A stretch of DNA of 64,000 bases from Escherichia coli (GTDB lineage Bacteria; Pseudomonadota; Gammaproteobacteria; Enterobacterales; Enterobacteriaceae). The stretch is taken from NCBI RefSeq assembly GCF_016026235.1, contig NZ_CP065613.1; one strand, written 5' to 3'. This document shows positions 52,605 to 53,516 of this stretch, piece after piece; position 1 is the first letter of the stretch; each line of letters starts with the position of its first letter. The position numbers and the translations under genes were made by a program. The notes beneath the pieces were generated by a model, which had not been told where the DNA came from, searched no databases, and worked only from the letters and a program-made list of their open reading frames with translations.

Positions 52605-53516
52605 TTACCCGGCAAGACTTACCGGTTGAGGAAATTCAGATAGGATTTCTTGTTCCGCAAAACAGTTTTTAAATTGCCTGCGGTAATCGCTGGGCGAACA
52701 ACCGACATGGCGCAAAAACAGTTTGCCAAAGTGATCGACATTTTCATAACCCACACGCCAGGAGATCTCTGCCTGTGATAATTCAGTATTAGTGAGTAAC
52801 CATTTCGCTTCCGTCATACGCCGTTGAATAACATAGTTAATAGGGGAAATACGATACTCTTTGGTAAATTCATGGCAAATATAACTGACGCTGGCACGAA
52901 ATTTTTTCGATAACTGCTCTAAAGTGATTTTTTCGCGATAGTTATTATTCAGATAGAAAAGAATATCTTTTATCAGAACATCTTTTTTAAGATATCCCTG
53001 CTCCGAACGATAAGCATTTTTAAAGTTTTCGTAGTAAAGAATTGCTAACGTATAGGCAAATGCGTCCCATAACGAAGATGTTTGGCTATTTTAACTTTGC
53101 GGCAAAATCACACTTAGCTCATTAAATAAGGTTTTAATGACTTCTTTTCCCTGCCCTGCGGCAATTACCGGGCAAGAATGCGGTTGCAGTAGCTGATTTT
53201 CCTCAGCCCCCTGAAACTGAAAGCCGTACAGCGCACAGGTACACGTCGTTGCCGGATCGTTAACGTCAGAGGCTACCGCATGCAACCTGCCGCGTTCTAT
53301 CACCACTATATCATCTGCATGCGCGACATATAACGAAGAATCGATGGTAAACCTTGCCACCCCTTTCTTGACGTAAATCAGCTCGGTTTCATTGTCATGA
53401 ACGTGATGTCCAGACTCCCATTTTGGATCATCGCTAAATGCAAAACGTGAAAGCCGTGGCGTTTTACCGGCGACAAACAGCGTTTCACTGGCGTTATCAA
53501 AACAGCGTTGATACAT
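52605..53516 (-). pseudogene. ydiP: AraC-family regulator YdiP; 304-codon frame intact except one internal ochre codon at 53091-53093 (codon 142)
   Basis: N-terminal cupin ORF (53091-53516) and C-terminal AraC HTH ORF (52605-52817) are in the same phase; codon-by-codon check of 52818-53090 finds no other stop. Confidence 0.82.

Follow-up and report, generated by a model that had tools for sequence, protein, structure and literature searches.

A single nonsense codon, K142*, very probably inactivated the AraC-type regulator gene ydiP in a small clade of Escherichia coli

In the stretch of 64,000 nucleotides of Escherichia coli DNA analysed here (the window), the listing of open reading frames cuts one minus-strand frame in two, a 141-aa ORF (53091..53516) and a 70-aa ORF that starts at Met234 (52605..52817). 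The question that this locus raises is whether the two pieces belong to one regulator gene, what separated them, and how long ago the gene was lost. A first-pass annotation, made from the sequence of the window, had proposed that the gene is ydiP, coding for an AraC-type regulator, that its 304-codon frame is continuous except for a single TAA and without frameshift, and that the loss looks very recent. Our analysis supports, with high confidence, the reading that ydiP is a true loss-of-function pseudogene created by one nonsense mutation, K142*. The features of the locus, with the basis of each in parentheses, are the following.

52605..53516, minus strand: ydiP pseudogene, orthologue of K-12 b1696 (translation, alignment, synteny)
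53091..53093, minus strand: premature ochre TAA at codon 142, ancestral AAA (Lys) (sequence and alignment)
53094..53516, minus strand: translatable remainder of 141 aa, with the N-terminal cupin / AraC ligand-binding domain only (Pfam)
52674..52913, minus strand: AraC-type DNA-binding domain, HTH_18, residues 202-281, in frame but past the stop (Pfam)
53517..53831, no strand assigned: divergent ydiP-ydiQ intergenic region, with GGGAGG as the ribosome-binding site of ydiP (alignment)
52569..52600, no strand assigned: GC-rich hairpin GGCGGCGCA...TGCGCCGCC in the gap where ydiO and ydiP converge (read from the sequence)

Translation of the minus-strand frame 53516..52605 gives 304 codons, that is, 303 sense positions including one internal stop, and a terminal TAA. 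The sole internal stop was read directly from the sequence as the TAA at 53093..53091, which is codon 142 of the ydiP frame. The alignment with intact ydiP orthologues has 0 gaps over 912 nt, and there is therefore no frameshift in the gene. The remaining five frames of 52605-53516 contain 13-27 stops each, and 2000 mononucleotide shuffles of the same interval have 18.4 stops on average and 8 at the minimum; the open ydiP frame is far from chance. What had been said of the frame, namely that it is continuous with a single TAA, is borne out by both the translation and the ungapped alignment.

From gloA to past fadK the window and E. coli K-12 are collinear, and the order ydiO, ydiP, ydiQ is as in K-12, with ydiO convergent to ydiP and ydiQ divergent from it. 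Nucleotide identity to K-12 ydiP is 96.9% over the full 912 nt, without gaps and with one internal stop. The K-12 protein (b1696, NP_416211.1) is an AraC-family DNA-binding transcriptional regulator whose gene has the same locus, the same length of 912 nt and the same Pfam domains as the gene of the window, and the limits of the latter agree both with b1696 and with the RefSeq pseudogene of strain FDAARGOS_943. The translation of the window gene differs from K-12 YdiP by 5 amino acids, the stop being counted as one of them. Synteny, identity and Pfam domains together confirm that the gene was named correctly.

Codon 142 is AAA in K-12 and TAA in the window, and the window product is without residues 142-303. 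We compared the window and two other carriers of the stop, FDAARGOS_943 and L014 (GCA_901482675.2), with nine diverse E. coli genomes including K-12 and O157:H7. AAA (Lys) occupies codon 142 in 9/9 of the comparison genomes and TAA is found only in the clade consisting of the window, FDAARGOS_943 and L014, so that TAA is the derived state and the mutation, K142*, replaces A by T at coding nucleotide 424. The alignment to K-12, which had been suggested as the way to identify the ancestral codon, thus gives AAA, Lys142. A YdiP of 303 aa is encoded in eight of the nine comparison genomes; the ninth, O45:H2, has a stop of its own, W150*. Residue differences from K-12 across the panel number only 0-4 (3 in O45:H2 besides its own stop) despite 55 segregating nucleotide sites in the gene, and purifying selection therefore normally acts on ydiP. 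Matches to ydiP were found in 5,376 of 5,426 complete E. coli genomes, with at least 80% of the query covered in 5,320, and a match was absent from 50 of the 5,426. With orthologues of 303 aa and such wide coverage, the possibility that the orthologue normally ends at this position, which would have undone the first-pass reading, is contradicted.

The conceptual translation encodes both the N-terminal cupin and the C-terminal double helix-turn-helix domains of the AraC/XylS family. Pfam places Cupin_2 at residues 30-89 (42.7 bits, cut-off 27.2), AraC_binding at residues 28-140 (41.1 bits, cut-off 21.1) and HTH_18 at residues 202-281 (E=4.6e-21, 75.3 bits, cut-off 33.6), while all matches of YdiP to solved structures and NCBIfam models fall at residues about 175-285, past the stop. 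The layout of an N-terminal cupin sensor and a C-terminal double helix-turn-helix is shared with AraC, the arabinose regulator, and the DNA-binding domain of AraC (PDB 2k9s) matches YdiP residues 199-280. However, the NCBIfam model of AraC gives YdiP 62 bits against a cut-off of 208, and YdiP therefore belongs to the same family without being an orthologue of AraC. K142* falls where the N-terminal cupin domain ends, 5' of every residue of the DNA-binding domain, and the window gene does not have the uninterrupted 303-aa frame expected of a functional AraC/XylS member.

We propose that Lys142 (AAA) became an ochre TAA through a single transversion of A to T, by which translation would halt just past the N-terminal cupin domain and give a 141-residue product without the linker and the whole C-terminal helix-turn-helix domain. 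Judging from the domain organisation of the AraC/XylS family, such a cupin-only fragment would be unable to bind DNA or to act on RNA polymerase, and any control exerted by YdiP would be expected to be lost. The 315-bp ydiP-ydiQ region is free of clade-private substitutions, and the 120 bp 5' of the ydiP start codon are the same as in K-12. Since promoter and ribosome-binding site are undamaged, the truncated gene is probably still expressed as a 141-aa cupin-only fragment. At the other end of the gene the hairpin at 52569..52600 is probably a bidirectional terminator (putative). With the convergent gene and the hairpin alongside, ydiP would be monocistronic, and for this reason polar effects of the stop are not expected.

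Independent losses of the same gene are found elsewhere in the species. W150* is present in 25 complete genomes of the O103:H2/O45:H2 type (L021 3501-4412, L028 7080-7991). In EHEC O103:H2 12009 and O45:H2 FWSEC0003, as in the window, ydiP has a single nonsense codon, here 8 codons further on, that leaves a cupin-only fragment; it is nevertheless a separate event, seen in 25 complete genomes compared to 1 for K142*, and fadK is intact in that lineage. Strain 720632 has a frameshift in ydiP (L030 151-1063), and in strain BDSF8-3 an IS1A-associated deletion has left only the 3' 141 nt of the gene (L031 2288-3141). These losses by nonsense codon, frameshift and deletion indicate that loss of ydiP is known, recurrent and tolerated, and that the gene is dispensable in nature.

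The window gene is only one base apart from intact orthologues, and an error of sequencing or assembly in an otherwise intact ydiP would produce the same picture. The nearest complete genome, FDAARGOS_943 (NZ_CP065615.1), has the identical TAA, and RefSeq labels its ydiP a pseudogene with an 'internal stop'; this genome was sequenced independently and differs elsewhere, with 2 private SNPs in ydiP itself. The TAA was found in FDAARGOS_943, GCA_002466675.1, GCA_900449985.1, GCA_901482675.2, SRR1118464 and SRR13627093 (all but FDAARGOS_943 under the assembly labels L004/L013, L005, L006/L014, L008/L016 and L017), which include NCBI draft and NCTC assemblies and two Logan assemblies from separate sequencing runs. 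The ydiP DNA of GCA_002466675.1, GCA_900449985.1, GCA_901482675.2 and the Logan assembly of SRR1118464 is the same as that of the window, and GCA_002466675.1 has no differences from the window over 20.4 kb. The exact 141-aa product is found on 28 contigs, where it is called 'cupin domain-containing protein, partial [Escherichia coli]'. In addition, substitutions are an atypical error for long-read platforms. The recurrence of the T in independent assemblies disposes of the sequencing error that the first-pass annotation had allowed for; we consider the error reading effectively refuted and give it a negligible probability. Assemblies L007/L015 and L009/L018 were rejected as carriers of the 141-aa product, given that they have a scaffold gap or a contig end after codon 141 and different ydiP alleles. 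In L007 (3421-3621, a run of N) and L009 (3423, contig end), two unrelated assemblies both break exactly after ydiP codon 141, which is why both surfaced in the exact-protein look-up.

A real stop may still leave a working gene, through a role of the cupin fragment, re-initiation of the C-terminal part, or read-through by an ochre suppressor. Promoter, ribosome-binding site and downstream frame are all undamaged, and the reported co-purification of YdiP with cold-shock proteins (PMC9283627) might not need the DNA-binding domain. On the other hand, the first in-frame start past the stop, ATG234, lies within the DNA-binding domain and is not preceded by a Shine-Dalgarno sequence, and as the sole in-frame restart it would yield half a DNA-binding domain; downstream of the stop there is thus no plausible restart site. 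No suppressor tRNA was found within the 64-kb window, where the sole tRNAs are two tRNA-Val(GAC) genes. We also screened for the stop with a 55-mer centred on the mutant T, which is unable to seed a megablast match on the AAA allele, and it matched 1 of 5,426 complete E. coli genomes, FDAARGOS_943. Programmed read-through would be expected to show a stop conserved across diverged lineages or a suppressor tRNA, and neither is seen, in the complete genomes and in the window respectively; the stop is instead limited to one shallow clade. Moreover, other lineages have lost ydiP by frameshift or deletion, which suggests that the gene is simply dispensable. We therefore regard residual function of the split gene as highly improbable and retain the reading of a loss-of-function pseudogene.

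The claim that the loss is very recent depends on the scale that is used. All other genomes are at most 98.25% identical to the window in ydiP and at most 99.0% identical over 24 kb. The window and FDAARGOS_943 differ by 34 SNPs in about 62 kb (5.5e-4), and the window and L014 by 5 SNPs in 19 kb. Recombination as the source of the SNPs between the window and FDAARGOS_943 was tested by their clustering and rejected, the SNPs being evenly spread at about one per 1.8 kb. Since K142* is shared by the window, FDAARGOS_943 and L014, the mutation predates their common ancestor; it would have arisen a single time, in the stem lineage of a small E. coli clade rich in IS elements, and been passed on to all sampled members. 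The private changes of ydiP on this stem are V81V (synonymous), K142* and I176L (a conservative non-synonymous change), or 3.3 per kb, to which the FDAARGOS_943 copy adds V72A and one synonymous change. Clade-private substitutions per kb are 3.9 in ydiS, 3.3 in ydiP, 1.1 in ydiR, 0.9 in ydiO, 0.6 in ydiF and 0 in ydiQ, so that measured against the nine comparison genomes ydiP has no excess over ydiF, ydiO, ydiQ, ydiR and ydiS that would mark faster evolution on the clade stem and so an older inactivation. A second disabling lesion was not found in ydiP. Recency therefore stands relative to species diversity (~2%), given the few private changes and the single lesion, but not in its stricter sense, as the stop is fixed in a clade with 34 SNPs over 62 kb and is older than the other lesions of the window. 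On the scale of species diversity the loss is recent, but at the level of a single strain it is not. With an assumed rate of 1e-7 to 1e-6 substitutions per site per year, the divergence of 5.5e-4 would put the crown of the clade, and hence the minimum age of the stop, at roughly some hundreds to a few thousand years.

The neighbouring ydiQ (53832-54596) is the same as in K-12 at 765 of 765 sites, while the adjacent ydiP, ydiO and ydiF are 1.8-3.1% off K-12. Between the ydiQ of the window and that of other E. coli genomes there are 3-21 differing sites. From these values ydiQ looks like a short recombination mosaic beside the pseudogene.

The window contains 51 K-12 genes in full, of which at least 5 are disrupted, namely ydiP together with lhr, ydhS, ydiM and fadK. 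The lesions of the latter four are listed below.

3605-4896: IS4-like ISEc60 of 1,292 bp that splits the helicase gene lhr (1221-7141), absent from this site in FDAARGOS_943
21774-22539: IS1 with insA and insB ORFs that splits ydhS (20560-22941), absent from FDAARGOS_943 and K-12
after 45481: 1-bp deletion (G, no homopolymer) in ydiM (45284-46497), an MFS transporter gene, with the first stop at codon 120
after 57461: 1-bp deletion in fadK (57192..58891), gene on the plus strand
57926-57928: TGG>TAG, W246*, in fadK (57192..58891), gene on the plus strand

The neighbouring ydiQRST-fadK operon ends with fadK, which has two independent lesions and is thereby more decayed than ydiP. It is split alike in L013, whereas FDAARGOS_943 and L014 have an intact fadK along with the ydiP stop, and both fadK lesions are therefore younger than that stop. 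Similarly, the truncated ydiM gives the same ORF call of 322 aa in L013 and L016, and ydiM is intact in FDAARGOS_943 and L014. FDAARGOS_943 is without the lhr, ydhS, ydiM and fadK lesions, and ydiP is the only annotated pseudogene in its homologous 67 kb. L014 combines the ydiP stop with lesions of its own at 1343-2040, 11404-11440 and 15389-16086, which are an IS1 upstream of ppsA, a 1-bp deletion (C, no homopolymer) that splits ydiO, and ydiB::IS1. Given that the other lesions of the window are missing from FDAARGOS_943 and that those of L014 are different, the ydiP stop is the oldest gene-disrupting lesion in the window. Gene loss within the clade is parallel and independent by sub-lineage, with later lesions striking fadK, ydiM, lhr and ydhS in the window and ydiO and ydiB in the sister assembly.

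Several smaller observations were made in the same comparisons. The ISEc60 copy in lhr has its own transposase frame broken, with ORFs that end at 4403 and resume at 4440. The name of the element is taken from RefSeq annotation elsewhere; FDAARGOS_943 has 38 matching places, none of them at the lhr site, and the element is also found in strain CFSAN029787 and relatives, on chromosome and plasmids. Small indels between the window and FDAARGOS_943 comprise a 6-bp in-frame insertion in the ydhP of the window (10681-10686), one of 21 bp, likewise in frame, in the ydhW of FDAARGOS_943 (window 25319), and an 8-bp indel in the ydhY-fumD intergenic region (28838-28845).

What the loss means for the strain depends on what YdiP does. 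ChIP-exo has confirmed that YdiP is a transcription factor that binds DNA, at few sites (PMC8464067). It is reported to bind cspA and cspE and to co-purify with cold-shock proteins, and growth at 15 °C is reported to be poor in a ydiP mutant (PMC9283627). Altered regulation of cold-shock genes and slower growth at 15 °C would be the corresponding consequences for strains with K142*. Because of the position of ydiP, its product may also control the divergent ydiQRST-fadK operon for anaerobic fatty-acid metabolism. A ChIP-chip target of FNR has been assigned to ydiP/ydiQ (PMC1802558). The site predicted there falls in the ydiP coding sequence, at 53368-53381 of the window (codons 46-50), and its half-site reads CTGAT in the window compared to TTGAT in K-12, a synonymous polymorphism that is also present in 5/9 comparison genomes.

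The order of the lesions allows a further reading, in which loss of YdiP silenced ydiFO and ydiQRST-fadK, selection on these genes was relaxed, and the fadK and ydiO lesions followed. The stop is indeed clade-wide, while the two fadK lesions are found only in the sub-lineage of the window and the ydiO frameshift only in L014. In extraintestinal Salmonella, ydiP is degraded along with ydiFO, ydiQRST and fadHIJK (Nuccio and Bäumler 2014, PMC3967523), a joint degradation that lends this reading some support: there, too, the regulator and part of the anaerobic beta-oxidation set are pseudogenes, the corresponding genes in the window being ydiP and fadK. These serovars belong to another genus, however, and the explanation given for them, loss of anaerobic metabolism in the gut lumen, is putative at most for the E. 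coli clade. The unrelated genes lhr, ydhS, ydiM and ydiB were lost at a similar rate, so that lesions in the ydi cluster make up no larger share than expected. O103:H2 12009, which lost ydiP independently, has ydiF, ydiO, ydiQRST and fadK all annotated as intact, and the control of the operon by YdiP is itself presumed. On balance we consider it unlikely that decay of the operon was set off by loss of its regulator. To the same degree it is doubtful that the ydiP stop was what began a stepwise loss of the anaerobic beta-oxidation module (ydiFO, ydiP, ydiQRST-fadK) in an IS-expanding and perhaps diarrhoeagenic clade; if it was, the case would parallel host-restricted Salmonella and imply that YdiP is an activator of the module.

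As to the lineage or pathotype of the clade, a literature search by assembly and run accessions gave only an unrelated table entry. Plasmid unnamed1 of FDAARGOS_943 (155-kb IncFII, analysed at positions 1-50000) carries an F4/K88-like fae/csh fimbrial operon, an ANR-family regulator gene and phoC, and also a truncated NEL-type E3 ubiquitin ligase gene and many IS copies. This gene content, which is evidence from FDAARGOS_943 and not from the genome of the window, suggests a diarrhoeagenic strain, and the clade with K142* may be diarrhoeagenic.

The ydiP of the window is an ordinary nonsense pseudogene that is already flagged in public annotation, and K142* alone matters little, being a further lineage-specific pseudogene in a genome where such genes are visibly accumulating. 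Its value is of another kind. Found in 1 of 5,426 complete genomes and on 28 contigs, it is a clean marker of the clade, and a shared ydiP stop followed by IS insertions and frameshifts in the sub-lineages provides a relative chronology of gene loss. The strains of the clade are also natural ydiP nulls, which could be used to test the role of YdiP in cold adaptation and its presumed control of ydiQRST-fadK.
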